Part shown: positions 9,806-52,009 of the stretch, one piece after another
Layout of the letters: every line of letters starts with the position of its first letter
Numbering within the stretch: the first letter of the stretch is position 1
Source of the DNA: Balanoglossus misakiensis
Lineage: Eukaryota; Animalia; Hemichordata
Direction of reading: 5' to 3'
Assembly: GCA_040954595.2 (NCBI GenBank)
Contig: CM082576.2
Span: 13,023,129 to 13,087,128, forward strand
Length of the DNA stretch: 64,000 nucleotides
Notes under the pieces: generated by a model
What the model was told of the DNA's origin: nothing
Database searches by the model: none
What the model saw: the letters and a program-made list of their open reading frames with translations, nothing else
Translations under genes and position numbers: made by a program

Positions 9806-12800
9806 ATGGCCAAGGACAAGGGTCCCTTACATACTGCGTCTAGAGAGGCAGATGCTCTCAAGAGAGAGGTAAAGTGATAAATATTATGTGTTTTATTTGA
9901 AGGGCTGGCGGATGACCCATTCTGCAGCAGCCCTGGCATTGGCAACTGTCCAGCGTTCTTGGCAACCGAAATCATGATTGGTAGCACAAACGCATCATAT
10001 GTAGAATTGCAGTCTTTAGGGGTGTCTGCCGCATATAGAATTTCATCCTGCCCAGGCCCTACATGCATTTGTGTGCGCGCGCTGTGCATGTGAATTGTGG
10101 TGTGTTAGCCCTGCGTGCAGGTCTGTATGTAATGGGGGTATGAAGAAAGCCAGTCCCCAAAATCCAATCATGCCCAGGCTTAGCTGCAATGATTGTAGCG
10201 GGTGCTGCTAGGTTGACTGGTGTATGCGAACACACCAGTCAACCTAGCAGCACCCGCTACAATCATTGCAGCTAGCCAAGGCTTTATTACAGTCATTACA
10301 TGTATAACTGTTTTGCATGATTGAAACAGAAAAATTGCTGTGTCTTTGACAAGTATTTATGTACATATACCTTTTATTTTTCAAAACACCACATGCAAAT
10401 TGTAGGTAGACAAGCTTCTTGGGCAATGTCAGTCTGTTATCGAAGAGTCAACCCATGACCAGAAGGAACTCAGTCAGCTTTACAAACAGTAAGTATTTCT
10501 GTATGGACATTGTGTGCTTCAGCAAGTCGAATTAGATCTACTTCATCATGGAGCTCAGCTACCACATCCATGATTTCATCCTGTGACAAGACTGAAAATG
10601 CAGTGTTCAAGTTTCAGCAGTGTGCCATATACCGGTAGCCTGCCAGTGGGATGCACTGTTGACATTGCAAATGTATGCAAGATACAACGGAAATGTTGGT
10701 ACTGCAAGTAAGAAAAATGATACACACATTGAAATGTTGGCTGACACCAGCAAAAGGTTCCTCAGATTGACTCCATTTTCCTGAAGTTGTGTTTGCCAGT
10801 ACACGGAACACTTTTAAGTCACCCTTTTGCAAAAAACACCTATATGACCTTTCATTAAAAAAGGTCGCTATTGTATATGTGGCAAGTTGAAGTTGTAATG
10901 TTATGATCTCTCCCCACCCCACACCCCCCCCCCCCCAGGACACAAGAACTTCAGAAGAAAGTCAAAAGTCACAACAAGAAAGTGTCCAAATTGGACAAGG
11001 TCAGTGAAAATTTATTGTCTTGTTGATAGAACACAGCAGTATTTTCTGATCAAATTCCTGTAAGAGTTCTCCTGTAAGTGTAATGATGTTGAAAGTCCCA
11101 GAATTTGGCATTCTGGAAAAAAAACGCTATGAAACTTGAAAGTCTGTGGAAAATGGATTTAGCCACCTATCCTATTTTTAAAAGTCTGTGATCATGCAAT
11201 GTAATTGCTAAACTAACATAACAAGAACACAATAATATAAAATTGTCTGCAGTGATATTACAGTACACATTCACTTCTTGAAAATGACACATCCTCAGGT
11301 GCACATATAAAATGCTGCAAACTCTCTTCTTGAAAGTCCTGGAATTTGTATGAATCCAGTGGTAACCTCTTCTCATATTTCCCCAGGGAAATGAACCTGT
11401 ACACGTTGACAAATTTGAAGAGAAGAAGAAGCAAGAGTTGGCAAGACTGAAGACTTTACAGGTGAAACTTAAAAAGAAAGCTCACTTTTCAATTGATTTT
11501 TCACAAATTTGCATTATACTAATACTGATCACAACAAGATATGAGAGACAATCATGGGTTGGTGAAGTTTGCTTGTTCAGTCGGAGGTGTTTTTTCTTTC
11601 TGGAGCTCTCCTTCACGCTTCTAACTTTTCCGTACAAGTTTCTGCTCAAGGCCTGCTGCCATGCGATGATGCCAGTTCATCCTTGTCATATATGTGGTCG
11701 CAACCTAGGTTAAACATACTTTTGTTCTGACAGGACCATTTGTCAAAGGTTGGTGACAAGTTGAAACCTGACAAAGTCGAGGAAGACTACCTTCGGTAAG
11801 TGTGTGTGTGAACATCTGTCTTAAGTTTTTGTTTTGTTTTGCAGTGTGTGGCTTTTTTGTTGTTGCTGGAGTGGGTGTGTTTTGCCAGTACTAATCCACT
11901 TTTCCACAGTTTGCTGTGCCATTCATTTTAGTTTCATCACCCTGCAGTGGACCAGCGGATTTCGGTCTTTGCCGTCTTATTAACTCACTTTGAATATTGT
12001 TCACTGGTACACACGGTACATTGTCAGTTTTCCTGATTCTTTCATCACTTCTGTGATGACGGAATCCAATATTCCCAAAGTCAGATATCCCAGACACCCT
12101 GTTCTTTATTCGCATGCTGATTTCCCAAAATGGTTGAAAACACTGCATTTGCATGTGGAGTTTTTAGTTTAGTTTTAGACATATTTTGCATGCTTTCACC
12201 AAGTGACCAGAAATAAGTAATGGTCAGTGGTCACTGGGCATCACAGCCATCTAAGGTAATCCGTACACTTGCGGATATCAACGTGTTCTTTCTACTGGTA
12301 ATTAAAAGGTAATGACAATTGGTCGTGAGTATATTGAAGACCTGAACTGTTTTTGGTAGAGTCCTTGTGTGGTGGTGGTGGTGGGATTCCGGTGTAGGTC
12401 AGTTCAGGTTTTCAGACACCCACAACCATCACATCCAGACAGTGTGTGTTTGCAGTGGTGTTTAATACTCTTGCCTGTGTAGTACATTCACAACCACACA
12501 CGCAGTATACACGCAGACGGAAATGAGATTTTCTGAAACACAGGCAGGTGTTCCCTGGCAGTACAGGGTGTCTCACACATTCAAATCAGTGGACATTGAG
12601 ATGGGAGACAGGCGCATGCATGCAGACATCACATGTACCACACAGACATGCATCTCGTCACTTGTACACACACATACACACACACACTGTGATGCAAACA
12701 TGAAACGCGATGATGCGTTGTACTAACAGATGCATTTTCAACTTGTTCCTTGTAACAAACACAACATACTTGTAGCTACGGCATGACTGACTGTGCATGC

Positions 12801-15800
12801 ACACACGCACAGAGTGATAGCATCTCCTGCATGTTTGTTCTGATGTTGGTGGACACAATCAATGCACATTTGTTAAAACATCCCTGGGCTTTTCTTATAA
12901 CATGGCATTCCCCCCTCAGAAAAGTTTCACAAGCAGCTGATTTTGATGATGATGAGGATGACCTGCCTGTAGAGTATCTGGAAAATGATAAAAATGAGGA
13001 GGAGGACGATGACGATGATAGTGATGAAGTCTCTGATCTAGATGACACTAACGAGCACGCTCGAAGCGAAAGTCCTGATCCAAAGGATGCGACGAAATCC
13101 GGGGAGAAAAAGAAAAAATTCAGCATGTTTCATCGATCGAAGTCGCCAGAGAAAGAAGCCAATAAGAAGGCCAAGGAAGAAGCGAAATTGGAGAAAAAGA
13201 AAGAGAAAGAGAAGGAGAAAAAGGCGAAGGAACTGGCGAGGAAAGAAAAGAAGGAAAGAGAGAAAAAAGAAAAGCAACAGAAAGATAAGAAAGATAAAAG
13301 CAAAGACAAGAAAGGCAAAGATAAAGGGAAAAAGGGCAAAGGTCAGGAGAAGGTTGAGGCTAGCGAAGAGGAAAGTGAGGAAGAAGAAGAGGCAAATGTT
13401 TCCATGGTAGCGGAGGATGTGGAGAGTGATGAGGAGGAAGACGATGAGGAGGAGGAAGAGGAAGAGGAGGAGGCAGAGGATAGCAAAGATGTTGTGGAGG
13501 TGAAAAGCGGTGGTAAGGCTAAGAAGAAGGACAAGTCCAAGGAAGAAAAGAAAGAGAGAAGTAGCCGATGGAGTATGTTCAGAAGGTCTGACAGGTGACT
13601 GGGAAAAAAAAACACATCAGCTGTTCAATTTGATCTTATGTAACATAACTGTTGCCTGTGCGGTGTGGTGTGGTGTAAATCAAGCCTGGCATGTGCACAG
13701 GTAGTTGCGCAGTTCTGTTACATAAGGTCATAATTCTTGTGTGAAGTGACGCATGGTGACTATAAAGCACTATTTGGAGGGACCCATCAGCACACACACA
13801 TACACACACTTACACCATACGCACAGACATATCATTGTTTCCTTGAGAATGTGCACTAACAGACTCCTTGTCATCGTCAAAGGCTATCTCGACTCCATTC
13901 TTTGATCTGTGTTGTGTTAAAACCTGTGTGGTAAATAAACTGGGTTGTGAGGTGTGCATCTTTGTGGCGTCTCGTCAGGTGTCGTGTACATGTACGTCTT
14001 TCGTGTGTCGCCCACTCACTCGTGGTTTGGTAGCAGTACAGTAAACTTGCATGCGGATGACTGCTGCTGTTCACACATCCACTAAATGGTGCTCATGGCA
14101 GCTCAGCTCCAAATGCTACAGTGTTGAACAACAGGCGTGGTTTCCTCCCTGACGAGGGTTGTGTCATCACGTTGCTAAAAGACTTGTTAATTAATATAAT
14201 GTTGTCTGTTGAATGATCTCGTCCCATACAATTAAATTTACTGTACCTCTATGATGTGTGTTTGGTGTACCAATTGGTGAATAAAAAACTTTGTGTCATC
14301 TCATTACTTTCATAATCATATCATGTCATATCAATTATCATAAATCATGTATGTGTACTACATGTACTACTACTGCTTAAATATAATAAACATTGTTTAC
14401 TTTGTTTTTAGGCTGACATTTTCATCATCTGTTCTATCATTGTGTGTGACTCATAATACTAACTACATTATTTTCAGACATTCTCTTAATAATCACTTTG
14501 CCAAGCTGATTAACATCATCATGACTTTTCTCCTCCTAAGGTTAAACTTAATAGATAATTTTGTTGTCTTCTATATTGTAAATAATTCTGTGATTTCTAC
14601 TGTAGTGAATACACAGTAAACAGGAAAGATATTTACGAGTCTGGGGTCAGTTTTGAAAAGCAAAGTGAATTGGGATTCGACTAGAAATTGAAATTTCTAT
14701 TACTGGTATCTATACTTGGGCCACTTAATTAAAAATAGTAAAGAACAATAAGAAATGTATTATCTATTCAAAGAATTCTAAAAATTACAGTGCATTGTTT
14801 TTCATTCTATTTGTTCACATGATTTATAGTGCTCTTCCAAGGGTTTAAAGAAAGAACTATTCATCTTCAAAATTAGTACCCCTCAAAAAAAACTCAGAAC
14901 AATTTTTGAATCCCATTCCTTTCCTGACAGATTTGACCTCGTTTAGTGTTTCGGTTGATTCACCAAACTTTGCTCTCACACAGTCACATACTCATTGTTT
15001 CATTTTGTGAGATTTGCAGGCTGACTGGGAAATAAATAAAAATGAAAATACAATGTACATCAATGCAGATGGAATACCGAGGTCAACCAGAATTTTCTTA
15101 ATAATATCGAATTTTGGAAGAAACAAAAACTTAAGTCTTGCAAACAAAACTTTTTGTTTGGGGAAGCACCTTTTGTATACCATTTCCCTTTGGGATGTTC
15201 TCAGTAAATGTTGAAACCAGTTGCACTCACCTGCAAATCTCTACTGTGTGCTTTTTTTAAATAGATATAAATTATCTTAGTAACTTCAACAAAATTGTCA
15301 TTAAGCATCTATCAAATCATAATGAAACTTTTTGTTTGATCATCATAAATATCAAAACTCTTTTAGATTATTGGTGATAGAAAATGTGTGTTTCTTAAAA
15401 GTTAAATCTAGACTACCCATCTATACAGTAATTGTGAATTGGACCATTGTTGGCAGTATTCTCGGTTGAATGAATTGCTCGCACGCATAATAAGGTCATG
15501 AGTATTCAGTACATCTTAGTAGATAATGACCCAGCTTCTACTGCTAATATGGTCAAGCATTTTCCTAGCCAAATATATAATCTACCTTTTCAGTTATTTT
15601 GGGCTTTGCCATAACTATGAGCTTGCAAATTCAATGTCCAATGGTACGACTGTATTTTGGGGAGACCCAAGAAATGGCAAACTGGATAGCCAGCTAGCAT
15701 TTTTCCAGAATGAAAGTTTCACTAAACACATTCTTGGGACTATGACAATAGTAATGTCATGATTGGAACTAGTTGACTATGACAAAAGCAACGTCCTTTG

Positions 15801-18800
15801 GTTTGATAATATCTCAGTATTCCTATCTTGTTTAATGCCAAAGGTTCAGCTTGTCAAGACAGGAAGACAGTTACACACACGCAAATGTGTCCCCTGTATT
15901 CTAGGCAAAGCACAAAGCATTTTAATACCCAGATGCCCGTACGCAGTAAAACTGACTTGCACTAAGAAAAACATTCAATGAACAGCTGGGTTATTGTCTA
16001 CTTTAGATGCATGAAATACTTATAATGACCTTTGTGATGTTACTGCTGCGTAACACTGTGTAATCTCGGTATCTGTAGGAAATCTAAAAAGCATGCTGAG
16101 GAGAAAAAGAAGAAGGTAGAGGAAAGTGAAGATGAGGAGGAGGAGGAAGAGGAGGAGGAGAGTGATGAAGAGGAAGGAGAGGTGGTAGCAACAAAGGCAA
16201 AACCTAAGGCAGGTGCTCAGGATGATGATGATGATGATGAAGAAGATGATGAGGAGGAGGAGGAGGAAGAAAGTGAAGAAGATGAAGAAGATGAAAAACC
16301 TGTTAAAGCAAGTCAAAAGAAGACAGTACAAGATGAGGAGGAGGAGGACGATGAAAGGTAATTATGCAGGCTGTAATCTGATTACAAGATTCTGTTTTTT
16401 TTTTTCTGACTATCTTCTATTAGGAATGCACCTTTTTGATGTTGTCAAGCAGATAACACACTTTGTACACGGTTGCATGCAGTTGACATCTTGGTAATTT
16501 TGTGAGTTGGATGGCAAACAAACTCGTTGTCTCATTGATGAAATAGCCTTTATATAAGAATGGCACTCTGTAGTGTTTTTTTATAGTACATTACCCTGTG
16601 TGATCTCTGTATTTCTCTGCAACAGCCTTGAAGATGAGGAGGAAGAAGATGAAGAGGAGGAGGAGGAGGAGGAGGAGGGAGAGGATGATGAAGAGGAGGA
16701 GGAGGAAGAAGAAGAAGAAGAAGAATCATCTGAGGACGATTTTGATCATGCTGAATCAGATCAGGACTCTGATATCCTTGATGAAGGTGTAAGTGGACGC
16801 AACACTGACATTTTACATTAGAACATGCACCAGAGTTCTCTGCAAACACCATGCATTCTGATTGTAAGTGACACAAAACGGTCATGTCCAATTTACATTT
16901 AATGAAAGTCTCTCTCAAAACAAACTTTAATACTCACTGTTATGTGGTACATGTATATTTTCCCAGATGAAACAGTTTGAAGCTGTTTGTGACTTTCCAG
17001 GCGAGCAGGAAGACGATTTAGGATTCAAAGTTGGCGATGTGCTGACCATAATGAGCACCAGGTGAGCGGTGTTGTGGAAAATTAATTGTTCTTCTCAGAT
17101 GCAAATTTAACCACTGTTACCATGGAAAATACATATCCATGATCATTCGCACACCTAGGCAAGCCCTTTTAACCATATATAGGCATATGTTAATTAGAGG
17201 TGACTGTAGATCTTTAAAATGCTCAAATATCTGTTGATGCCCGTGACTTTCATCTGTACCCCTCTCCATGCCTGGGTTTCTCCTTGATCACCTGATCATC
17301 ATCTGATCCCGTTGTTTGCATCGTCAGGGAGGATGGCTGGTGGACGGCCGTGGATGAGGAAGGGAATAAAGGTCTTGTGCCAAGTACTTACTTAAAGGTG
17401 AGTTTTCCTTTGGTATGACGTAAGTGCTGGTGTATGTGTACCAAGTATGTGTGGAAGTCACGAAAAACAGTTTACATGTACTTTCAAATAGTTAGTACAT
17501 ATACATGACATTGATTGTACAGATACTAACATCTGGTAAAGTCTTAACAGTGAATTTTAATATAGAGAAAAGCAGGTGTCTTATGTATGCCACTAATATT
17601 AACCCTGGACAACACACTGCAAGCAATACTACCAGCATACACTGTTGTGTGCATGTAACTGAAACCTTTCTTGGTGGATTACCACCAACATCATCCTAAC
17701 CTTTACATCCTTCTCTTTCTTTTCTTTTTTCCAAAGCTGAAAAAAGATTACTCAGACCAAAGAGATCTGCAGTCTCCAGAGGGTGAGTCATACAGAAATG
17801 TTATTGGTTTATAATAAACGACTGAAAATTGAATGTGAAACTCAAGTCTCTTCTTATTTCACATATCTGACAATCCTGTATAACTACATGTATAAGCATC
17901 AATTTCTTGACATCGAACAATTCTATGCAATTATTTTTGAGATCTTGGAGTCCTAATTTTTTTCACAATTATTGCTATATATTTTAACTTTCTACAGTGT
18001 GTAGTATGTGTATAGTCTTATTCAAGACAGTTTATAATTTGATCATAAAACTAACTCAGCCCTGTGCATTTTGGAATGGGTGATTCTTTTGGAGCGTGAC
18101 AGTGCATTATAATGGTGAAGGAAAAGAGGATCATTTAGGCGACAATTCAAATATGTATGATGTTGTAATAATCTTACGATTCCAAGAATTATTCAAGTGC
18201 ATGAACGTCAAGCATGTCGTAAATGCTATCACCCTCAACATCGTGACTGTGTAAATTAAGATGTACACATCTCCTTTACTCTGTTTGACTTTTTCATTCA
18301 GCGCCCCAGTCACCAGATCCAGAGACCCCAAAAAGGTCAGCCATGATTCTGAAAGAAAGTGCTGTGAACTGTCTCTTTCTTTTCTATTAAAAGAAAGACC
18401 CACACATTCAATTGGAATGATCCATTCATTTTTCCCGGTGTCCGCCATGCCAACCGACTGAGGGGACATATCATTACATTTCTAGTCATGAAGATCATTG
18501 CATGTACCGTTTGCATGCGCTATCCGACATTCAGAAGCATTTCGCATGTACAAATTCGGGAAAATCGATTTTACATCTGAATATTTACAAAGTCCACACA
18601 TTTACACCAACCCTTGTCCCCCCAAAACATCACAACAGTTGAATGGATGATTCCAAACACAACCATTTCCCCCTCAATCTTTCTGCACGTTGAGAGCTGT
18701 CCCTTTTCAGTGTTATCTTAATATTCCAGCAGACACTTCTCTACTAATTTATATTTGTTTATTTTTTTTTCTCTGTCAACATATGTTAATCTTCCGACAC

Positions 18801-25805: not shown

Positions 25806-28558
25806 ATATTCAAAGCACACTCATAGCATTTTACTCTGAAAATAATTCTAGCGTGATCTCACTGGGGATCAATTAAAAAGATCACATGATGCATTAGATT
25901 GATACTGGAATTCACAAATCTTCCTCAAAGTAGATACTTTGTGCCTGACAGAAAGGATCAAAGTTTAAATCATTGAAACTCCTGGTGAATTGGTTTCAAA
26001 ACTGCATTTAGTGTGAATTTTTCGATTCTTTGATGTTTGTAGGTGCCTTGCCTATATAGTGTACATGAAAGCTTTATTCAAAAGTTATATTGTGATATGT
26101 GAATTCTTTAGAGTCCTGAGACAGGAGACATGTACCAGTAGTTAAAAATTTCATTTTTGGCCGATTAAACTCCATACTAAAAACCACTTCAAATCTTATC
26201 AACTAACCAAGTTCAAACATTTTACTTTTACACATAATTAGTCTGTATCACTATCAGTGATCATTACAGATATGATAATATACCATCCCATACTAGTAAC
26301 TGATTCCAAATAACAACCTGTTAAAATCTTCTCGACACTTATCAACTTGCCAAGTTCAAACATTTCACTTTTACACATAATTAGATGTATCCGTGATCAT
26401 TACAGATATGAAAATATACATGTAGATACCCATTGCATCCATTTCAAAATTATTGCCACTTTTAATGGACAATTTCTTACAGGTTCAACCCTGTTACATA
26501 ATAACATGCCATCTTAAGAGATGAACAATATCTTGGAATATCCAGCATTACATGTAACCTTCAACATCCTTACAGAAAGTCCTAATTCATACATTTGCTT
26601 TAAAAATCTTGTTGGAAAACAACCTTCCAATTCAGTTTTTACACTCCATAATTATACAACAATGTGACCTAAAAGTCGTATTGACTGCAACAACACAGAC
26701 ATTAGTTGTCTTTTGGCCAATGTTGAAAACGAGATATTGTCCACACGCATCATTGCCTGGTATCCATGCAATATTCAAACTAGTAGACTAAAAGGGTTAC
26801 CTTCGCACCAAATATCCAGACAGATAACCCTCTTGTACATTGCAATCTCCACGGCAGAGCCTACTTTGGAATTCTATCAAATGTTTCTCTCTTGCTTTTA
26901 AGAATTTTATAACTAAAACTACAATCACCCAAGTGCTCTACACCTAAACAAAACACAAAAGTAAGTTGTTTTTTTATTATTATTTTTTTTTCATCATTTT
27001 ACCATGGACTGTCCAGAGTAAAATGTGTATAGATTTTTTGAAAGATGATGAAGTGTTTCAGTTTTGAGAGTTTCATGAACACAAATGGTCAGGGCCTTTG
27101 AATGCCAAAGAATATTTCAGTGAAGGCAGGAATAGAAAACCTCCATTTTGGAACGGGGAGACTGGCTAAATACACAGCATGTCCACCACAGTGTTGTGGG
27201 TGCTGTGTGACATCTGGATTTCATGAACACAGGAATTTCAAAATACACGATGGAAGATGTTGCAAATTGGACACGCAAAAACCTGGAATGTTTCATCAGA
27301 CTGACCATTTTGGTCTTTGGATGGATGACCATTACCCCATGATAGCGGTTTCAACTCTCAGACCATCATAAACATCATTGCATCTTTCCTTTTTTTTAAC
27401 ACATTGAGTGAAAGGAAGAACAAAATTTGATCATTTTGTTTTTTGTACCCCACTGAATAAAAGTTATGTCGTGAGGTGAAAGAAAACTTAAATATCTATG
27501 GCATTCATACGAACACACCTTTAATACAGTAGTATGTTACAGACATGTTCGTTTTCGTATCAATAACACTATTAAACACAAATTTTCAAGTGCTTGCTGA
27601 GGATCAATAGCCCTACCACTCCCTTCATTGTTTTGTGTTTGGAAGTTTTCACACAAAATGAATTGGCCTATGTAGCTGACTTGCTGATTCTGAGAAACTT
27701 TAGTTTTCCATTTTTTTCTTGTTTTCCTTAATGTTTTGTTTTGTTTTGTTTTATTTACTTGTTACAATTTGTTTGTTGTTGTTGTGCTTTTCTTCACTTG
27801 TATATTTGGGGAAGTGGCTTTGTATAGGTGATTTGCACCTATCCTATGTAGACATATTTTCTGCTTTGCCATGGATGAATCTTATAAAAAATAAAGACAA
27901 AAAAATATATAAAAAAAGAGCAGTGCACCTGTAACAAATAGTTACAGGATACAAAGCGTCTACTGGTTCACTCTACAGAAATTTCCAGGCCGGCATACAA
28001 ATCATGCCAAAGCTCAAGCTCTTCTTCCAAATCAAGAAATAAAACAAGTTGATGAAAAATAAACCTAACTGATAGCTGTTGCAGCCACTATCTAGTATAA
28101 CTGCAGATACTTAGGCAGTCTACTTTCATTTTCAACTTACTCCTAATCTTCCTAGCTGTTGTGCGACTGTGTAAAGCAGTTGACCAAGCAGAAACAACGT
28201 TACCAGGTAACCAGTGGTAACACGAAATTTTATAAATACTTTACAGCTGCAGTTAAGCAAGCTTTGCATAAACTTTTGAAATAAATAGAAACCCCAATTA
28301 ACTGGACCAGAGAGAAAGCAGTGACAAAAGAAATAAAAGTGATAAGATCAATATTTTTTTTAAAATATTATTTCATCGCTAAGTCTGCATACGGCCAACC
28401 TAAAAGATAGACATGACTGATGCAAGGAAATTAAACCCTGCTGTTCGAATCAGTGCTTTCTCTGGTTCAGTGAAAATGGGTGATCCATAAATAGAATAAA
28501 TTGCAATGCAGGAAACGTAATCCAAGGGGCATCAGTCTTCAGCAGACTCACCATTTAA

Positions 28559-29258
28559 CCCTTTCACCAACATGGTTTGGTCCAAATCCAATTTTTCTTA
28601 AAGGGGAAATCCGTCGTAGCTGATTTCTACATAATTTGGTAGCTTTGATGTCACTCTTTCAGAAAAAAACATATTCGCCATGTATAGGTCGCGCGATTTT
28701 TTACAAAATCTAGGGAAATTTCCAATATGGCGTTTACTGTAATTTGAATCATGGGAAAAAAGCGCCAGGACCAACTTCCGCCCACCATGGTGTGGGTGAT
28801 ACCATTCTCCGATAGGTGTCACTGGGCGACAGACTAGGCGTATTTTCATAGCTATTGTTTGTTCTTTGCATCAGTTGATAAACAATCATCAGCAAAGTCG
28901 AAAATTTGTCATCTATTGACAGTTTTCATGAGCTATAACCCATGGAAAATATGCAAATACGCTTAGCTTGTGAGGCAGTGACACCAATCGGAAAATGGTA
29001 TCACCCACACTAAGGTGGGCGGAAGTTGGTCCTGGCGCTTTTTTTCCCATGATTCAAATTACAGTAAACGCCATATTGGAAATTCTGCCAACTTTCCCTA
29101 GATTTTGTAAAAAATCGCGCGACCTATACATGGCGAATATGTTTTTTTCTGAAAGAGTGACATCAAAGCTACCAAATTATGTAGAAATCAGCTACGACGG
29201 ATTTCCCCTTTAAATAACAGTAAAGTTGGACCCATACAGAGGGTATGGGATGAAAGGG
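28559..29258. mobile_element. Tiny (~88 bp) piggyBac-like MITE interrupted by a larger MITE
   Basis: TTAA|CCCTTTCA... at 28555-28566 and ...TGAAAGGG|TTAA at 29251-29262, i.e. TTAA target duplication with CCC/GGG termini. Confidence 0.7.
28602..29209. mobile_element. Palindromic TTAA-flanked MITE (T2/Kolobok-type AGGGG termini), copy 1
   Basis: TTAA TSD at 28598-28601 and 29210-29213. About 250-bp inverted arms begin AGGGGAAATCCG and end CGGATTTCCCCT. A near-identical copy lies at 59577-60195. Confidence 0.92.
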
Positions 29259-29854
29259 TTAAATCTTACTCACTGACATTAGTTTATTTTAGTTTCTTTC
29301 GATAGACTACCAATCTGCTGTTCTGTGCAATGGCACTGAAAGCTCAATCACCAGCTGATACAATCCATCACCAGGGTTCTGCCCAGCATGACTTGAGTGC
29401 AGGCAACTTCATACTCATTAATATTCATGCTCATTCATATTCATATCTGTTGCAAGTCATAACCATTCATCAATAGATTTGATTGAGTGCACAATAGTGT
29501 CTGCTAGCAGTCTTTGTTTGCTAGCTAATTTCTCTGCCCTCCGCCACTGTCAGGCGTAGGCAGAACCCTGCCACTTACACTCTGTATGTGGACATACCAT
29601 ATACTACACAATTTATGGTATTGACCTAAAAACATGAATCTTACTATGACAATTTTAAGGCACTGATTAGTGTCCATGTACAGGGTGTAATGCAAGTCAA
29701 AAGAACAACCCAGTGACTGAGCCCATTCCAATGGGTAGAGCAACATGGCGATTTTCAACAGAATCTAAAATAACCAAAGACAGTCAGCGACTTTGCCCCC
29801 TTACCAATTACATTTGTAACAACAACAAGACAAAAGACAACAACCAAGACCTTA

Positions 29855-32800
29855 TCATAACTTGCGGGGGCAGAAGGCCTTGTAGTGACCAGGCTGGCCA
29901 CAATTGAAACACGTACGGCCACCATGATATCTTCCTTTGGCCGTTGGTGACTTTGGCTTGGCCATTGAGCGTCTGGACACTGGTGTTAGGTGAGGACGTA
30001 CTGTCTCATTGAGAGTGACTGATGTGCTCTGCAGTGGTGGAGGTTGCTTGACGGCCGATGAGTAGGATGCCGTCCCTTCCTTACCAGTGCCTCGAGTTGG
30101 TCGTTGACTTGGCTGTCCGTTAGTTGTCGTGACAGATACTTTACCAGCATTACTTACAACGGATATGGTAGAACTCACGCTTGTGGTCTCGATTTCTGCA
30201 CCAGACAATGTCCTTTCAATTGTTATCTTTTGCTAAAGAACAGATAAAATTAACAAGAAATTAATTATGGTGAATGATTCACAAATAAACAGTTACTATA
30301 CGATTATGTTGAAAATTTGCAGGGAGTGTGTCTGGTTCTAATAAGCAACTCACCCAACTCGAATCACCCAGATCGGACGTTTCATCAGGTGTGCCATCGC
30401 ATCCCCCGATGGCTCCCAACAAACTCTCATCCCCGGAGACTCCCAATAATCTCTCATCATTCTGGCCAGGTTGACCGGTCTCGCTGATGGCACTAGCGAT
30501 GCACTCGGTGGCTTTTTCATTGGCGGTCCGGATCAGCACGTCGGCCAGGCGCCTCAGGTTGGCCGTTGCATCCTGCATCCCGATCAGACCCAGCATCTCC
30601 ACAGCATCATCACCACAGAGGTCATGGATGTTGTTCACCAGGTCCTCGCGACTGAGCTCAGTCAACTTTCTCCCCGGAGTAAACTGTGCCAAGGGAGCCG
30701 CTGTTTGTCTTTGCTGGCTGCTGTCACCCTTCAGTTCTCTTAGGGCCTTGGTAACATCCTTCCCAATCAGTACACATTGTGCTGACTGCATAAGTACAAC
30801 TGTATCACAAACATAAGTTTTCATGTCAATTCTTTTATGCTGTGCTGAGAAATACTCGTTTAATGAATGCATCTTTTGGCAATTTTTACACAATTTTTGG
30901 TACTGACTGACAAAAAATTAAATGTTACAAGCATTCATGTGGCATGTCTGCTACTTACAAGTAACATGGCATGAGTTGAGTTGTAATAACTTCTTATGCA
31001 GCATTTCATTGAACAGAACAAAATAAGCACCATAGAGTTTAAACACAAACTGGTGGACATTTTGAATTAAACTTTGCAACAATTTTGCTCTTTTGTTCAA
31101 ATTTTGCATGGTGAACCGCAATTTCCATTCTCAGGGGGTAAAAACCTTAAATTGGTTTGACCAAAATAAGAGAAAACTGAGATTTTCGAGGCGCATTATG
31201 ATCACACAACGTTCACATTTGTTACCTGGTTCTGGTGTCTCCTGTATTCCTGATGCAACACCATTGCTGATCTTCTTTTCATCCTCCCTTGCTTCTAAGT
31301 AGTCAGTGCCATCTTTCATCATCTTCAAACGCATTTCATGCGATGGCCTGTACTGCGACATTTTCAGTTCGTCTTCCAGTTTCTGGTTCTGTTCTTCAAG
31401 CCAGGCAATCACCTTCCTCTGTTCCCGCAACTCTTTCTCAATTTTCTCCAGTTTGTCCAGGCAACCTTTGGTTTCTTCCTGATGTTCTTTCAAATGTCGG
31501 ATTTCTTCTTTCTGTTTCTCATTTTCTTCCTAGAAATTTTCAACATTGTACTGATAACTCCAACTGCTGTATTTTACATGTATTAATCATTTAATATTTG
31601 GGATACTATCAAGGGCCTACTAATTATGCAATATCAAAATAGGCAAGTGTTACGTGAGGATTAATTTTTGCATACTCGTATTTCTACGCATCTGTATCTC
31701 TGTAAATATATTACGCGACCTTTTATTTTCACATTTTTGTTACTCTCGCGTATTTCGTGAAAATTTATTGCTCGCGAAAATAACCTGTTTTACAGTATTT
31801 CATCAAATGAAAACTGCTGGAAACCAAATTAATGGCTGTACCCACCTGTAGCTTGATGAATTGGCCTTTAAATTCTTTAAATTCTTGTATTTCTCTCTGC
31901 ATATCCTGTATCTGTTTTTCCATCTCCACAACAATTCCAAATTGGTTGTCCATCTTTGGTCTTTCACTCTGTAACTCTGTTATTTGTCGCTTGTTTACTG
32001 TGCATTCAAGAGCCAGAGATTCATGCTGTCTTTCATAGTGCAACTGAAGCATACGTAGATGTTCAGCAACTCTATTATGAAGGTGAAGCCCATGTTCTCT
32101 TCTGGTGCCCTGTACACAACGATACAACAAACAATGTCTCACCTCAGACAATACTTAAGTTGCTGAAGCCACAGAGATCATGGGAATTGTGGCAGCATAC
32201 AAACTGACTGCAGTACATGCACACAACAGAGTGGAACTTTATGAATTTTCACCACACTCATATTTAAGTAAAAATTACATAACATAGGCTGTAGCATGGC
32301 ACACACATATTCTTTCCGTCAATGTATGTAATATGACATATTTGGCATTTTCTGCTTCCATAGAAGACTAATGATACAAATACAAACAGTTCCCTAAATC
32401 CTGTGACACTTGAGTATAATACATGAAAACAGAAATGCACACATATTTTTTCACAGCACACACAGAACACAGCACTCAACGTCAAACCACACATAACAGT
32501 ACACTATAAACTGGAGCTGTTTTCCATAAAAACTTCACTACAATAGGAAAACAGTCAACAGCAAAACATATCACTCAATTACCAACTTTCTCACATTCAT
32601 TTCACCATCCATGGGCATATACATGTACAGTCTTCTAAGTGCATGCATCCTGTTATTGAAGCTCAGAGTTTTGTAAGATCTTCACCTGAAAGGAGCAGCC
32701 ACTCAGTTTGAAGACGCACTGCACACGTACTAGCGGACATTCTTGCAAATGGCTCTCCAGCTGAATTAGTAAAGACAAATCATGAATTGGGATGAGGATC

Positions 32801-34923
32801 AGTCACAGAATTAGTTGTGAAAAAAGTCTTGATTTTGCCAGGTTTGTAGTCTGACTTCAGAAATTTTGAGCTAATACTGCAAAATCATATTTTATGGGAC
32901 AACTGGATCCACACAATCAAGGATTTCCACTTTGACCAACTATGAAAACAAGTTTTGCAAATGCATTGGTACAATACTTCCAAATGTAACTGCCTGAACA
33001 AATAAAAAAATCCATTCTGAAAAATTAGCTTCTTTTATCACAACAGTACAAATGTAGTTTTATACCAACATCTACAAACAAAATTTGTATATATTGATTG
33101 CACATGCGAGTGGTTTTTGCTGGTGTAAGACTGGCTAGAGTTTTGAATACTGATAATTCTTTACCTGGTTCTTCTGAAATGTTTCTTCATGATTACAATT
33201 TTCAGGACATTTCACAGGAACTTTTGTACAAATTTCAGCTTCGTGATTCTACAACAAAACATTATAGAAAATAAACAATTATTATCACAACAATAGCCTG
33301 TTATGTAAATACTAATACTTCAATGTAACATATAATCTGATAGTGTTTACACATATGATGCAAGAAACATGAGACATTTTCGTGAGAAGATGAAAGTGAC
33401 ATGATGTATCACTAGAGACAGTTAAAGGTATAGAGTCACCCATGAAAATGTAGTCACAGTTATCATCAAGTGGAGATCTAACCAATCACATATTTTCAGT
33501 GGATGCACGGCCATGCAAAAAAACACAACTCCAACTTCTTAGACTCAAACACGCCTATTAAATATAAATCATTCAGCCTACTCCTTAGAGTGTCACATGA
33601 CGTCATCAACCATCATGCGGCAAAAATGATCACTAACATATATCTGCTGACATTTGCAGGTGCTTGCTTGGCGGTCACGCACTCACCTGTAATTCCCGAA
33701 ACGTGCATTCGTGCTGGCAATGCGCGCAGGTAACAACTCTGGCAGGGCACTCGTCTGCAAGGTGTTCCTTCAGCTTCCCTCGCTGAAGATTCACGCCGCA
33801 CCCACCGTTTGTGCATTCTACAGGCACCGACTCACAGGAATCTCCAAGGTGATTTTCATAAGTCTTCAGTGCACCTTCCCACTTGCAATGCCCACATATG
33901 ACGATCAACTCCTGCATCTCCCTGTGTGCTGATTTGTCCTCGCGAAATTTGTCTCTGCACAGCTGATCATTACAGTCTGTTGCCGGGCACCTTGCCTCAC
34001 TGCAAGTGATCAGAAAAGCATATTTACATGTCGCAGCTCGCATACATGTCTTTGTCATTCGAATTCCCCCAGATTTTCAATATGACAAAATGGCTCCTTT
34101 TGATAGGTTACATGTATGTCTTACTTCTCAGTGAAATATGCACAATTTATATGTGAATAACTACCACAACTATTTTTGAGGTAGAACACAAATGTATTTC
34201 ACAAATGTTCATGTACCTCAGAACGTGGAATGAGGTAATTGTACATGAGCTCTGACAATAGTCATTGAGTTACTTTAGCCAGCACAAGCACATAGCCTCA
34301 GTTTCAGAAATTAAAATAACCAAACTGATGTCAAAAGTGAGCAACCTAATGTCCTTTTAATACTGCAATGTACAGAGGAAAAATGGGAACAGACTAGACT
34401 AGCACTTGCTATTTTCTGTTCCCAACTACCCTTTCATTCAAACTGATATTTATTCATGTGCTATATAAATATTTTTCACCCAAGGCCTTGAAGGGTAATA
34501 AATCGAAACTGAATTTTATTTGTGATGAATTGGTACCAGTTTACAAAGTGAAAATCTCATTACTGGGGATAAAAAATATGACATTATATAAATAGATGTA
34601 GTTAGTAACTCACTGTACATTTTACTGGACCCTCAAAAAATACAATTTTTTATCCCAATACCGGTAGAGTCAACAGAGTGAAAATAAAACCACAACACCA
34701 CTCCAACTTCTGTTTCCCCAAAAGAGTACATTTCACAGCCAGTTTATACAAAAATAACAGACATGTGACAAGTATATTCTCACCTCACAGCCTCTTCAAT
34801 ACATGACTCACAGAATCTATGTCCACAATTGTTTTGGTACGGTTCCTTCAAGGGATACCTGCACTTGGTACAGATCAAACAATTTTCCAGCTTTTCCTTG
34901 AAGTCAACAAGATAGCCAACCAT
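29855..34923 (-). CDS. Divergent TRAF-family paralogue: RING + TRAF zinc fingers + coiled coil + unrecognised segment + C-terminal CCHC zinc knuckle; no MATH domain; about 682 aa
   Basis: Exons 34923-34784 (CTKC...CGHRFCESC RING), 33999-33687, 33248-33165, 32760-32686 (TRAF-type fingers, e.g. HLADECPARVVTCAHC, HLQECPLVRVQCVFKLSGC), 32109-31846, 31529-31226 (coiled coil), 30844(or 30781)-30354 and 30232-29855 (ends CFNCGQPGHYKAFCPRKL*). All boundaries are GT-AG and phases are consistent with no internal stop. Joining of the last two exons is inferred from phase only. Confidence 0.82.
31650..31797. mobile_element. Partial TACTGTAAAA-ended, CGCGAAA-rich MITE
   Basis: Ends TTTTACAGTA and carries CTCGCGTATTTCG(C/T)GAAA motifs shared with 35863-36068, 45554-45688 and 50347-50420. 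Confidence 0.6.
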
Positions 34924-35862: not shown

Positions 35863-36068
35863 ACAGTAAAACGGGAATATTTTCGCGACATGAAATTTTC
35901 GCGATATCAAAAGAGGCAACTGTTACTCGACGATTAAATTTCGCGTTCTCGTATTTCACTGCATCGTTAGATCTCCGAAAACATTTTTACGCGAACTTTT
36001 TTCGCGTTTTTTGGCTCTCGCGTATTTCGCGAAATTTTATCATTCGCTAAAATTTCCCTTTTACAGTA
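35863..36068. mobile_element. Short TA-flanked MITE (CGCGAAA-rich family)
   Basis: Imperfect TIRs (A)CAGTAAAACGGGAATATTTT and AAAATTTCCCTTTTACAGTA. Internal motifs are shared with three other fragments in the window. Confidence 0.7.
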
Positions 36069-37807: not shown

Positions 37808-40800
37808 TTATGGACCGTACAGGTCTGACGTGTCCACGATCATTTTGACGAACAGCGTGTCATTCTTGACGTAAGCGGGCGTTTCCAGGACTGACTGCGA
37901 CACAAAGAGCGGGCAGCCGGAGGCAATGTTCATGTCACTGCTTGGACGCTTGAAGCTGCTGCTTGTTGGATCCGGTTTGAAGGTGTCCGATAAATTGCGA
38001 CGCCCGGTGTCTTGATCCAAGAGTATCAGGGTCACCTGGGAGAGAGAGCATGATGAGACCATTGTAAGTGCATCTTACATTTGATGAAACAAGGCAGGGT
38101 ATTTGTTGTAATACCAAAATTGGTGGAGAACGGTGGAATAAAAATCAAGGGGGGAATACAGTGTAAGGTTGCTTTCAGGGATCGTCATTTCAAAGGCATT
38201 CAAAAAAGTACATGTAAAGATTTTAAAGAGATGTTACTTTTAATGGTAGAGTTTATATTGCAAAATGTGGTAAAATGTTGCATGTAACTGGTTGCGATTA
38301 CCATAATGAACAATCTATGAATGGGTCTCCTGTCATAAAACACTGTACTGTATTAAGTAAGGCTTAATGTTTGAGCAAAAAGCACAACACCACAACATCT
38401 CTATGCAAATTTGGAGGCTCAAATTCTGTCAAAAAATTGGGACATGCAAACCTCTGATACAAACTCTTGCCCTGCAGTCTTGAATCTTACCTTCTGCCTG
38501 AAGGGCCAGTCCAACAAGGCATCGTAATCTCCCCGCATGACCACAAAGAACAGCGACATGTGGGTGTTTTTACCCATACCGTCACCGTTCAGGTAGACCC
38601 TGGCACACATCTTGTAGCCGTACCGACTGGTGTAGAACGGCTGGCTGTACAGCGACAGAGTCTTGCCCACCACCGCTTCGTGTTTGCGCCGGGTGTAGTC
38701 TTTGATCTTCCATATCAGAATCCCGTCGTAGCACGCCGTCTCTAAGATTTGAAATTTGATGTCCTGCTCCGCCAGTCGGATATCGTGCATGCCGAGTTGA
38801 GTTCCGATCTGAGATAAGGTCTTCCTTATTTCCTCTGCAAATACAATGAAAGGATTTCCATCTTCCCGTAGCAAGAAAAGCATATCAGGCAGATTACCTG
38901 GTAAAACTATACTTAGGACTGTGAGTAATGTGTAGACACTCGGCACTATAGTACTGACAGTGCAAAATTTGTAAGTTTGGTTGTTGTTTTCATTGACAGG
39001 GGGAGATACATGAGATAGAAAATCCTGTTAACTTTGCAGAAGGCAGGACACAAACTTTGACAATTAAGTTATTGTAACAATTTTTGCCCCTAAACAAATA
39101 TCAATTTCGAATCTATTTTTTTACCTATATCAGCTGCATGGACACCACCAGTTGTTCTCACCCGAAGTCTTTCAGATTCCATGGTATCAACCCTGCCGTC
39201 CAATCTACGACAGGTTTCTTGGACTGCCATGGACAGCCTCTTACACTCTTCAATGTCATCTTTTTTGGCTTTTTGGGTCAAGTCATGTTCAATCTTCATC
39301 ATTCTATCGTTCATGGAGGCAACGCTTTTCTGTGAGGAGAAATTTCAAAAGGTGGATAGGTAATGATTTTTGACAAAGTCTACGAAGATACATGTATTAT
39401 ATACATGTTCTGAGCACTTTGGCTGATGCTTTCCAAAGTAGAAATAAAAAAACATGCATGCCCCAATGCGAGTATATAGCCAACAATTCTTTACAAAGTT
39501 CTGTTCACCGTTGCATTTGGTTATTACACATACATGTAGAGCTCCGCATTCAATATCACAAATGTCCAAAAATTATTTGTGACATTGCCGCCACATTCAT
39601 TTATTAAACCATTTCTTGTCACAGTCAGCAGACCAGACATGCACTCACATGTGAATCTCGGACTTTATCTTCCGTTTTGCCACTCTGAATCTCCAATGTT
39701 TTCACTTTTTCTTCAAGATGCTCCACTCTCTGTTTGGCTTCGTCCAACTCCTCGGCCTGCTGTCGGTTTTTGCTTTCCATGACACTCCGCTGGTTTTCCA
39801 GTTCAGTGCAACGCCGGTCGACTTGCGACAGCCTCAGTTCAAGTCTGGAGTGGCTCTCCGTGACAAGTACGAGGTGATCACTTGTTGACTGGGAGACGTG
39901 TTTCTGGAGCTCAGTGAAGGAACCCTAGCAGGAAATGAAATGATGTCAGTAATATTACTCTTTGCATGCAGTGGGAGCAGAACAAGCATCCAAACAAAGG
40001 GTCTCCAACAGTGACATAAAACAAAATTTACACACTGTCAATTTGAAACAAGACAACAAAAGTGAACCAAAATATGTCAAGTATTAAAATGTGTAGGTTG
40101 CCGGATTGTGTGTGTCTGTTGTTGTTGTTTGTAGTCATTTTATACAACTACAAACTTTGTAAATTTGTGTACAAAAGCTCTCCCTAATGCCCAGTTACAA
40201 TACTGGGCACATTGCGTGTTTGACAACTGGGTCTTTCTAATAAATCAGTCATCTGTAGAGTTCCTTTGTGCAATGGCGGATTACAAACAACTACGCATTA
40301 CACTTCTTTTATCCATTCTCTTTGTTGCATGTCCACCATTTTTTAACTTTGGCCAAACAACTTAAAATAGCGAATTTCGAACTTGAAGTCATGAATCATC
40401 ACCTGATTTCCTCAAAATAACTTGTGAACCAGGAAAAAATACGCCAACAGTTTCACTTTTGTCCGCCAGTCTGTTTCGTCATACTTTTAAGCGTCATTCG
40501 TTTGTTTGTTTGTTTGTTTACTATTTACATTCAAACCTTTTCGTTCCATTCTAGCATTTTTTTCAGACAGGTCACACAATTTTTGAACTTGCATAATTTT
40601 GGTGACAGGTGGAATTGAAAAGAAAAAAAGTCAACATACAACAATTCATATTGTAATTGCAGCTAAAGTTATTGTACTAAATTTGACCTTTCCTCTGTGT
40701 GTGAAAGGTCAGCAGTTCCACTGAATGACACAGAAGTTGTACCACAGAGGCTGAAGGAAGAAATGGGGCAATAAATCAATCATCAAGATGACCTTGACCT

Positions 40801-43436
40801 AGAAAGTTTTTCTATTTTCTTAAAATACTTTGCCTAAATCAAACTAGCTTAAAAGTCTTCACTTGCCACATTAGTGTTTTGGCAACGGGATCACCACCGT
40901 TTTACTGTCTGTCAGTGGTGGGTTAATCCCTGCCAAAGCTTGCATTCTAACTTTCAACAAGAAGTGCTGTTACATAGATTTTCACACAAATTCCAACTTC
41001 CAACACTTACCCTAAACTCACACCCATATTCATTGAAATGGCAGGTACTTCGCTGCATGGGACATTTTTCAAGATGCTGATCCAACTGTGTGTGTGTGAG
41101 AAAGGACAGTTCAAGTTATTTCTGGTCACATTCATCCATTGCATGTCTACACGCTCAGCCATTATAAGGCTGTTTTCATTTTGAAAATGTTGGGTAGAAA
41201 ATTGGTTTCCAATCTAAATTTGGCTTGATGACTCTAAACTTTTCAAAGCCAACCGTACTGCAAAAGCCACTATAAATCACACTCTCACTCAATATATATA
41301 TATATATATTAATACTAAAATGATATTGTCTTCAGAGATGATTTGAAAGAACTAATAATTCATACCCACTCTTCTAAAATGGATCAAATAAAACATCTTG
41401 AAACTTAAGTTGATAGTAGGTGGTTTATATTGGATCAGATAAAATTGATTTGTTCTTCCTTGAGTAAAAAATGGCTTGGTCTCAGCTCTGTCTTGGAGAA
41501 ACTATGTTCAAATGACCGTTGTATCATTGAGCAAGGGCCGGGATATCATTCATGACATTCAATGTGACCACAGAGGGCGCCATTCATCATGCTGGACCAT
41601 TAGAAACAAAATCCATGCGGTACCTTACCAGGTTTTTAACAAAATATGTAATAAAAATAAGATATTGTGGAAGGATGATAGCACAAATCGTATAATGTAT
41701 CTTATAATCAACCTGCAAGCCTTTAGAAGTAATAAGGCTACTGAAACACGAATAATCTTGAATTTACTTCGCCATATGAATCTAATGAAAATAAATTTTT
41801 GTCTATTCTTCGGCTCAGGGCCACTGTTCATTTCTTATTAGGATTTGTCATCATTTGAACTTACCTCCTGTCTTGCTAAATCTTTAACTCCACAATCATT
41901 CGGACATGCAACTGGGGCTGCGTCGCACTTTTCTATATGGTGCTATGGAAGATAATAAAAATGTCACTTGAATACTGATGTTTGAAGTCTGTACCTGTTG
42001 TTCATAACTGCTCTACCCAAACAACGACAATCGTCTCCCCTCCGACAGGAATACTTACTTTCAGATCTTCGTAACTCATCGACTCCTGACAGTATTCACA
42101 CGTAACTTGTCTGTACTGACATTCCGAGCTCAAATGGTCGGCGAGATGTCGTCTTTCCATCTGGACAGAGCATCCTCTGTTTTTATGCATGCAGTCGATG
42201 AGAGCGAACTCGCATTCCTGCAAGTGTTTGTCGAGTTGTTTCAATTTCAGAGTCACAGAGCAACCTTTGTCCCTGTTGTAACAGTACACTGTAGACTTTT
42301 CAATGTCTCTGCGTGCAGCATGGTCACGGGAGAATCCCTCGCTTATGGGTTCTTTGCAGTCTTCCACGCAACAAACTGGATTTTCAGAGTCACTGAAGAA
42401 ACCAAGAAAAATAGTCTATGATTAGAATAATACATCAGGTGGACAGTCTCGAGCTGGAATTCTGCATGCAAGTCACACTCAGTGTTTTGTGCACTCAAAG
42501 TCTCTATGTGATTGGCTACTGGAACACTATTTTGTATAATGCGAAGCAAACTGTTCCACCATTCTGCACAGACAAATTGTTTATTTCTTGTGTTTGCATA
42601 TCAATGTCCGGAATAATAAAAATAGTACAACATGATACTTCTGCAGCATCATGATTCAGTTAGGCTGGTGCTCCCTGACCATAATATTGACTATCTCTCT
42701 CACCTTCAGCCTGGTTGTAGCATTATCATGAGTGTGGTCAGAGAGAACAAGCCTTACATTTATCTCAATTGTATTTCCCTCACCATCACATAATCCACAG
42801 ATTTCATAAGATGTGGAAACTGTTGAGGCATAAATGCGGCATATGCTAATTTCTTTATGCTAATTTTGTGACAAAATTAGCATATCGCCCCACCATACAG
42901 CTGCGTTTCCACAGCTAAGATATCATGTGCCCTGTCATGACTGAACTGATGGCCAATGAACAGATAAGACCGTTAACTGGGAATGTTACACACCACAAAA
43001 AAAAAAAAAAAACTTTTTTATAGTCATCAGTTTATAACTCAAGTTTCCTCAAGGTAGTTTACTGTCCTCATAGCTGAGCAAGATTTGAGGGTTGAAAGCC
43101 ATGCTACAAAATCACCACACAGATTAACAACGTGAAAAAATGTTAATGTGTTTCACTTATATTTATTAGGGAAAACCACAAAGATAATACTCATGTATCA
43201 TTTTAATGAACACAGGGTACTTTATACCTCACGATTTGTTTGATGCAGAACTGACAATATCGGTGTCCACATTCCAGTTGATGGGGTGACCGGACAACCT
43301 TCTTACAGTAGCGGCAAATATAATTTCTGGCAGGTTGTTCAACAAATATTTCTAGGGGATATCCGTCATCACTGAGAGAATCTACCGATGTGCCTGATAG
43401 GAGTAAGCTCGGTGTGCTTTCTGAAAGTGCTGCCAT
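37808..43436 (-). CDS. TRAF3: TNF receptor-associated factor 3-like (RING, zinc fingers, coiled coil, MATH), about 582 aa
   Basis: Exons 43436-43228, 42392-42059, 41942-41865, 41085-41011, 39924-39649, 39329-39125, 38834-38491 and 38035-37808 total 1749 nt in frame. RING: CRYC...CGHRYCQFC. MATH: YDGILIWKIKDYTRRKHEAVVGKTLSLYSQPFYTSRYGYKMCARVYLNGDGMGKNTHMSLFFVVMRG...FKPDPTSSSFKRP..MNIASGCPLFV...IVDTSDL, closest to TRAF3 as I recall it. Confidence 0.92.
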
Positions 43437-45553: not shown

Positions 45554-45688
45554 TACTGTCATAATATTGGAATTCCCAGGTTTCAACACCATACAATCAT
45601 CAAACGCGAAAATTAATCCTCACGCAAGAGTTGCCTCTTTCGATATCGCGAAAATTTCCTGTCGCGAAAATAACCCGTTTAACAGTAT
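45554..45688. mobile_element. MITE copy of the CGCGAAA-rich family
   Basis: ATACTGT...TTTAACAGTAT ends. GTTGCCTCTTTCGATATCGCGAAAATTTC is the near reverse complement of sequence in the 35863 element. Confidence 0.6.

Positions 45689-48207: not shown

Positions 48208-52009
<3,802 letters not shown>

Follow-up and report, generated by a model that had tools for sequence, protein, structure and literature searches.

TRAF proteins normally owe their specificity to a MATH domain that binds receptor tails; TRAF7 ends in WD40 repeats, and RBBP6/Mpe1 is another protein with a RING. The TRAF-C/MATH domain is the defining domain of the TRAF family (PMC3697994, PMC7586133, PMC10181826), and TRAF7 is described as resembling TRAFs in its front half while missing the TRAF homology domain (PMC3697994, PMC7586133). 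One CCHC zinc knuckle and a RING stand together in RBBP6, a protein linked to mRNA processing (PMC1360078), while ZCCHC3 with TRIM25 couples a knuckle RNA binder to a RING ligase, with antiviral and anti-LINE-1 effects (PMC10351740). The LAP2alpha isoforms of TMPO and ZNF451 (domesticated DIRS1 ORF1) provide a precedent for a host gene acquiring a C-terminal stretch derived from a retroelement first open reading frame (ORF) (PMC4495291). Here we describe a candidate TRAF gene in a stretch of 64,000 nucleotides from the acorn worm Balanoglossus misakiensis (contig CM082576.2 of assembly GCA_040954595.2, positions 13,023,129 to 13,087,128). The whole 64-kb stretch is called the window below, and all coordinates refer to it. 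The predicted protein carries, in place of MATH, a tail with a conserved unnamed domain, a low-complexity linker and a terminal CCHC knuckle.

Like TRAF2, TRAF3, TRAF5 and TRAF6, and like an intact TRAF3 gene adjacent to it, the candidate has a RING, TRAF zinc fingers, a coiled coil and the linker-helix arginine known as the Arg-link; unlike them it has no TRAF-C/MATH and possesses the unnamed domain, the linker and the knuckle, and unlike TRAF6 it lacks the Ile72/Leu74 pair. It shares with TRAF7 the TRAF-like front half without a TRAF homology domain, but neither the candidate nor its orthologue in Glandiceps talaboti has a WD40 match in Pfam. RBBP6 has the order DWNN, knuckle, RING, whereas the RING of the candidate is N-terminal and of TRAF type, its knuckle is terminal and no DWNN match was found. 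ZCCHC3 and TRIM25 are two separate proteins with three knuckles, and no homology to them is claimed here. By the TRAF-C criterion, the predicted protein is TRAF-derived rather than a member of the TRAF family, as has been argued for TRAF7.

We found no description of a protein combining RING, zf-TRAF, coil and knuckle in the literature covered, which excluded subscription papers and supplements; the available part of PMC3503706 contains nothing on an architecture of RING, zf-TRAF and knuckle, and no paper was found on the Glandiceps gene LOC144449148. The original prediction, made from the letters of this DNA, that no TRAF with a terminal knuckle had been described holds for the literature covered, but the architecture is already present, unnamed, in RefSeq. 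A conserved deuterostome TRAF in which a knuckle tail has replaced MATH would demonstrate that the ubiquitin module of TRAFs can be given new targets, RNA possibly among them, and provides a concrete gene for study in a key outgroup for chordate immunity. It also brings to light a domain of ~95 amino acids (aa) without a Pfam match that is common to acorn worms and amphioxus. The surprise is tempered by the MATH-less TRAF7 and the knuckle-plus-RING RBBP6, which are already known.

Gene model and its orthologue in Glandiceps

The model, read from genomic sequence only, comprises eight exons on the minus strand (34923-29855) that splice to 2049 nt, encoding 682 aa and a stop, with no internal stop codon and GT..AG borders at 7/7 introns, so that the uninterrupted eight-exon frame of the original prediction is borne out. 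Pfam searches of the exon translations, alignments and a profile likewise recovered the predicted intact RING, TRAF-type zinc fingers and coiled coil with no MATH, the Pfam outcome being the expected set of RING, zf-TRAF and zf-CCHC, and the terminal knuckle and the basic patch before it were found where they had been placed. We are highly confident that the gene and its architecture are real. The features are as follows.

34784..34923, minus strand: coding exon 1 (aa 1-47), with the ATG and the larger part of the TRAF-type RING; Pfam TRAF3_RING 34.0 bits (cut-off 26.9)
34784..34923, minus strand: within exon 1, Lys20/Arg22 at the positions of TRAF6 Ile72/Leu74, from alignment to TRAF6
33687..33999, minus strand: exon 2 (aa 47-151), RING end, linker helix carrying the TRAF Arg-link residue Arg73, zinc fingers 1-2 and the first part of finger 3; zf-TRAF 36.7 bits (cut-off 27)
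33165..33248, minus strand: exon 3 (aa 152-179), TRAF zinc fingers 3-4; introns on both sides align with TRAF3 introns
32686..32760, minus strand: exon 4 (aa 180-204), zinc fingers 4-5; 75 nt, equal to TRAF3 exon 4
31846..32109, minus strand: exon 5 (aa 205-292), end of the last finger and start of the coiled coil (TRAF-N-like); aligns with Glandiceps XP_077995744.1
31226..31529, minus strand: exon 6 (aa 293-394), coiled coil; closes with a phase-1 intron, like the pre-MATH exon of the neighbouring TRAF3
30354..30844, minus strand: exon 7 (aa 394-557), unnamed domain and acidic Gly/Ser linker
30516..30797, minus strand: unnamed domain of ~95 aa (aa ~410-503), predicted to be helical, its core made of three helices
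29855..30232, minus strand: exon 8 (aa 558-682), low-complexity linker rich in Ser/Thr, then basic patch, knuckle and stop
29870..29911, minus strand: the one CCHC zinc knuckle (aa 665-678), leaving four residues to the C-terminus; zf-CCHC 25.8 bits (cut-off 20.8)
29283..29288, minus strand: candidate polyadenylation signal, inferred from the motif as the first AATAAA past the stop
37808..43436, minus strand: intact TRAF3 gene next to the candidate, 582 aa in 8 coding exons, MATH present; ~2.9 kb upstream on the same strand, related to the candidate and perhaps a partner of it

In-frame stops are present upstream of the exon 1 ATG. Exon 7 is open in 5 of 20000 base shuffles and has codon periodicity at p=2e-4; for exon 8 the corresponding values are 53 of 20000 and only p=0.09. 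Intron 7, which separates the two, is an AT-rich GT-AG intron of 121 nt that the frame of the tail requires.

That these last two exons are part of the gene, as originally predicted, is borne out by an independent RefSeq model from another acorn-worm family. A full HMMER scan with exon 7 against 1.84 billion representatives gave two matches (word-index searches had yielded 0 of 1667 candidates for exon 7 and 0 of 10 for exon 2), and the first of them is XP_077995744.1/XP_077995754.1 of Glandiceps talaboti (LOC144449148), an 'uncharacterized protein' of 637 aa known as a computed gene model; Glandiceps belongs to the Spengelidae and Ptychodera to the Ptychoderidae. This protein has RING, zf-TRAF, coiled coil and terminal zf-CCHC (22.8 bits) in the order of the candidate and no Pfam MATH match, and it is collinear with the 682-aa model over the full length, with 255 of 687 columns identical (37%, knuckle included; E=4e-138). 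The architecture that the prediction had proposed to seek in relatives is thus present in Glandiceps.

Identity to the orthologue reaches 44-46% in the TRAF half (RING 24/55, fingers 69/149, coil 79/181 over aa 205-385), and in the tail it amounts to 38/94 (40%) in the new domain, 33/152 (22%) in the linker and 11/27 (41%) in the knuckle region; for comparison, TRAF3 orthologues are 48-60% identical, and 90% in MATH. Exon 8 by itself matches residues 571-635 of XP_077995744.1 (36%, pairwise E=1e-10), and the basic character of the tail is found in both proteins, with 10 Lys/Arg against 0 Asp/Glu in the last 43 aa of the candidate and 11 against 1 in Glandiceps. Judged from the two sequences, conservation of the domain and the knuckle is close to that of the TRAF half, and the linker drifts, which is a pattern of constraint on the first two. 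Because a Glandiceps protein has the same domain order at 37% identity, knuckle included, the comparison argues strongly against the tail being a fresh neutral transposon scrap.

In a midpoint-rooted tree of N-terminal halves (24 rows, namely 22 of 122 fetched proteins and the two window models, without TRAF2/4/6), the candidate and the Glandiceps orthologue group together (100/99) and lie outside the hemichordate TRAF3 group, and the window TRAF3 groups with that of Ptychodera flava. The candidate gene seems to be a paralogue of long standing and not a recent duplicate of the TRAF3 next to it. The Glandiceps orthologue and Glandiceps TRAF3 are placed on contigs of equal length, 33,943,121, and so probably lie on one chromosome, which would point to linkage, if not to adjacency.

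The TRAF half and the missing MATH domain

The zinc ligands of the RING and the fingers are intact, those of the RING also in the Glandiceps orthologue; four TRAF zinc fingers are recognised by pattern and the fifth by alignment to TRAF3. The coiled coil aligns with the TRAF3 coil, and the orthologous Glandiceps region matches generic coiled-coil models, both at the level of sequence. TRAF6/3/2/5 lead the PDB matches of the RING. In TRAF6, the substitutions I72D/L74R abolish Ubc13 binding and the linker-helix arginine is required for dimer and ubiquitin contact (PMC5702613). The Ubc13-binding pair is absent here (Lys20/Arg22, and Ala21/Asn23 in the Glandiceps orthologue), and the arginine is kept, as Arg73 and Arg77, respectively. 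The neighbouring TRAF3 likewise has a lysine at the Leu74 position, and the loss of the pair is thus TRAF3-like, not peculiar to the candidate gene. E2 partners are undefined for TRAFs other than TRAF6, TRAF5 alone being weak with Ubc13-Uev1A, and TRAF5 is able to complete the TRAF6 active site in a heterodimer (PMC5702613). Because the arginine is kept but the Ile72/Leu74 pair is absent, the candidate RING is more likely to act as a partner RING than as a stand-alone K63 ligase. The earlier claim that the signalling output is kept is weakened accordingly by the residues at the Ile72/Leu74 positions.

At E<=1, neither exon 7 nor exon 8 has a Pfam MATH match; the MATH exon of the neighbouring TRAF3 scores 105 bits, and there is no second MATH exon within the window. 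With our own TRAF C-terminal (MATH) profile, built from 45 sequences, the candidate tail scores -2.4 bits (106 of the 121 shuffles reported, from 300 run, score equally high) and the Glandiceps tail gives no reported match. In DNA/tblastx tests for a decayed MATH, nothing under E 0.79 was obtained. The two genes nevertheless share their layout, both having 8 coding exons and intron phases 2,0,0,0,0,1,0 (7/7 equal); introns 1-4 fall in the same alignment columns, whereas introns 5-7 have the phase in common and a position that is not alignable. Between their N-terminal halves, 96 of 339 positions are identical, and exon 5 resembles TRAF3 exon 5 (9/1000 shuffles as good). Since exon count and phases agree, the tail occupies the place of TRAF3's two MATH exons. 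A degenerate MATH, an idea suggested by the agreement of the intron phases and by a resemblance at the junction of exons 7 and 8, was rejected, all tests being at chance: 349/1000 shuffles match the comparison of exon 7 with TRAF3 exon 7 and 796/1000 that of the two exons 8. Of the ~290-aa tail described at the outset as unrelated sequence, the absence of MATH is upheld, but the tail is not featureless, residues ~410-503 being a conserved domain.

The neighbouring TRAF3 is 71% identical to Ptychodera flava TRAF3 and 65% to Glandiceps TRAF3, and its MATH exon is 89% identical to those of both species and 82-83% to Saccoglossus. The frame requires the downstream donor at 39125 (phase 1) for TRAF3 exon 6. 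A GT at 39161, upstream of it, also looks like a good donor but causes a frameshift ahead of MATH, and a MATH-less TRAF3 splice form from this donor is conceivable. Ptychodera flava has two TRAF3-like genes on one contig, and its XP_070572516.1 is a TRAF lacking the RING, in which a coil-MATH unit is duplicated in tandem and the first of the two MATH domains is apparently truncated.

The tail and competing explanations of its function

The second match of the exon-7 scan is Branchiostoma lanceolatum CAH1238118.1, labelled IGSF22 (Ig, two FN3), which holds two copies of the unnamed domain. Among the four copies, 6/6 pairs beat 2000/2000 shuffles, with 26-40 identities over 85-97 columns, and 20 columns are invariant in three copies. 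AlphaFold2 on exon 7 as a single sequence was unusable (predicted local distance difference test, pLDDT, 38); on an amphioxus copy, with three sequences, it gave a three-helix core at pLDDT 79-88. No Pfam family passes the cut-off on the domain, NCBIfam and PHROGs yield 0 families on exon 7, Foldseek gives no match to the domain at E<=0.001, and neither exon 7 nor the amphioxus unit has a usable match in the ESM Atlas. Matches of exon 7 to Kelch-like (designed SAKe) and VopS_N sequences were dismissed as summed weak repeats or E>=0.04.

In CAH1238118.1, residues ~393-788 are a tandem duplication in which each of the two copies of the exon-7 domain is followed by a copy of a second unnamed helical unit. 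The VIA matches (best Z 7.7, root-mean-square deviation 2.9, 79 aligned) fall on this second unit, not on the exon-7 domain; its two copies match each other (0/2000 shuffles as good) and were modelled as a helical bundle, and it could not be detected in the tail of either acorn-worm protein (139-648 of 1000 shuffles doing as well). A short helix common to XP_077995744.1 and CAH1238118.1 after the domain was not significant (244/3000).

The pattern C-x2-C-x4-H-x4-C of the knuckle occurs once in the six frames of the window, against a mean of 0.03 in 100 shuffled windows, and its best PDB matches are nucleocapsid and RBBP6 knuckles. In ZCCHC3 the knuckles bind RNA in innate sensing (PMC10351740). 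From its motif and the basic patch, the candidate tail is predicted to bind single-stranded nucleic acid.

In the leading reading, put forward tentatively, this conserved MATH-less acorn-worm TRAF paralogue may serve as a partner subunit, with the new tail directing TRAF ubiquitin signalling to targets that contain RNA. The coiled coil and the RING linker helix would allow oligomerisation with itself or other TRAFs, because the Arg-link is kept; because the Ile72/Leu74 equivalents are polar or charged, the protein would probably not load Ubc13 by itself, a RING heterodimer or another E2 serving instead. Without MATH, docking on receptor tails would be impossible. The basic patch and single knuckle of the flexible tail, made multivalent by oligomerisation, would bind single-stranded RNA or a ribonucleoprotein (RNP), and the unnamed exon-7 domain would add a protein contact.

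Several observations weigh against this partner-subunit reading: (i) each chain has only one knuckle, knuckles can make contacts with proteins as well, and most of the anti-LINE-1 effect of ZCCHC3 survived mutation of its knuckles (PMC10351740); (ii) targeting may in fact be the work of the exon-7 domain instead of the knuckle; (iii) the parent TRAF subfamily is not settled, given a tree without TRAF2/4/6 and a RING that ranks TRAF6 slightly above TRAF3/2/5 in PDB matches (34 vs 31, 29 and 29 bits); (iv) the two exon-7 matches include no orthologue from Ptychodera flava or Saccoglossus, though their TRAF3s are in the collection, and such an orthologue may have been lost, may lack annotation or may be concealed in a 50% cluster; and (v) acceptors 7 and 8 score poorly, since in a splice matrix built from 12 local sites only, 12% and 24% of all AGs do equally well (donors 6 and 7 rank in its top 1.5%), and local similarity over the exon 7/8 junction is at chance level (2088/3000 shuffles equal or better).

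A rival reading is a protein-targeted modulator or decoy that joins TRAF oligomers by coil and RING, binds no receptor and damps or redirects TRAF3, its domain and knuckle binding proteins rather than RNA. Such a role agrees with the absence of MATH alongside a retained coil and Arg-link, with the lost Ubc13 pair and the adjoining TRAF3 gene, with the amphioxus copies of the domain, which stand beside Ig/FN3 domains and have no knuckle, and with the protein contacts of knuckles noted above; it gives no obvious need for a conserved basic patch and knuckle ending a drifting linker, however, and we consider it rather unlikely. We would give less weight still to a stand-alone RNA-binding E3 outside receptor signalling, which might use an E2 other than Ubc13 and serve RNA turnover or the control of transposons. 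It would agree with the RING zinc ligands kept in both species, with the branch shared with Glandiceps apart from the hemichordate TRAF3 group, with the existence of knuckle-plus-RING ligases (PMC1360078), and with ZCCHC3, which restricts LINE-1 and co-localises with TRIM25 (PMC10351740), but TRAF dimer features are retained, and the E2s of non-TRAF6 TRAFs are undefined, with TRAF5 weak on its own (PMC5702613).

It is very improbable that exons 7-8 lie outside the main transcript, leaving a truncated RING-finger-coil TRAF followed by an unrelated or transposon-derived remnant. The weak acceptors would allow it, reading through intron 6 or 7 reaches a stop after 31 or 24 codons, and an ATTAAA lies inside intron 6. 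Against this stand the independent Glandiceps model, which joins the same parts in the same order, the conservation of domain and knuckle at ~40%, the frame-keeping intron that splits the tail, and the single copy of the tail exons within the window.

Origin of the tail and other features of the window

We propose that the gene arose as an old duplicate of a TRAF3-like gene, in which a module found in amphioxus too took the place of the last two coding exons. A retroelement origin of the tail is a serious, if tentative, possibility; capture from a host gene is possible too, and is held with some reserve; unrecognisably decayed MATH exons are improbable. The domain with its terminal knuckle appears to resemble the gag-like first-ORF proteins of marine-invertebrate tyrosine-recombinase (YR) retroelements, a resemblance that searches of metagenome and viral contigs did not confirm: 0/597 and 0/281 pattern matches were confirmed as a retroelement donor, and the loci found by DNA pattern, 13 metagenome and 29 viral, gave at best 9.4 and 13.7 bits over short pattern-selected stretches and were taken as chance. 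Unlike the LAP2alpha isoforms, exon 7 and its relatives have no LAP2alpha match in Pfam (none at E<=1 on exon 7, none at E<=0.1 on XP_077995744.1 and CAH1238118.1); a LAP2alpha domain is reported for Xenopus DIRS ORF1 (PMC9210276). Tyrosine-recombinase retroelements are abundant in Saccoglossus (PMC3266345), a CCHC box occurs in some YR-element gag-like proteins (PMC6681497), and co-option of ORF1 by host genes is on record (PMC4495291; PMC9210276).

In its most specific form, which we judge quite unlikely, an ancestral acorn worm would have fused a TRAF module to a domesticated retroelement ORF1/gag-like module, and the resulting TRAF would be recruited by RNA or retroelement RNPs, coupling them directly to TRAF ubiquitin signalling. 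If this were true, the protein would be a one-protein counterpart of ZCCHC3 plus TRIM25, and the mobile domain would have entered an Ig/FN3 protein of amphioxus in a separate capture.

Elsewhere in the window, an exon at 5693-6040 (+) has a BTHB domain (53.9 bits) and is presumably FKBP3-like, and an exon at 53727-54479 (+), with a hydrophobic segment and a weak match to the ribosome-receptor Lys/Pro region (19.4 bits, below cut-off), is one that we take to be RRBP1/kinectin-like. Exon translations at 48792-50319 (-), assumed by us to be enolase-phosphatase E1-like, have no Pfam match at E<=0.01. The exons of a gene at 12756-16494 (+) are highly acidic and Lys-rich, of low complexity, and the two examined have no Pfam match. 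A short dispersed repeat family is represented at 31628-31797 (intron 5 of the candidate gene), 35863-36068, 45603-45688 and 50346-50418. A non-coding element of ~630 bp with long terminal inverted repeats occurs at 28594-29213 and 59569-60199 (both near-full, 96%) and at 56668-56860 (partial), and such elements are probably miniature inverted-repeat transposable elements (MITEs); the copy at 28594-29213 is nested in a second inverted-repeat pair (28553-29264), just past the candidate polyadenylation signal.

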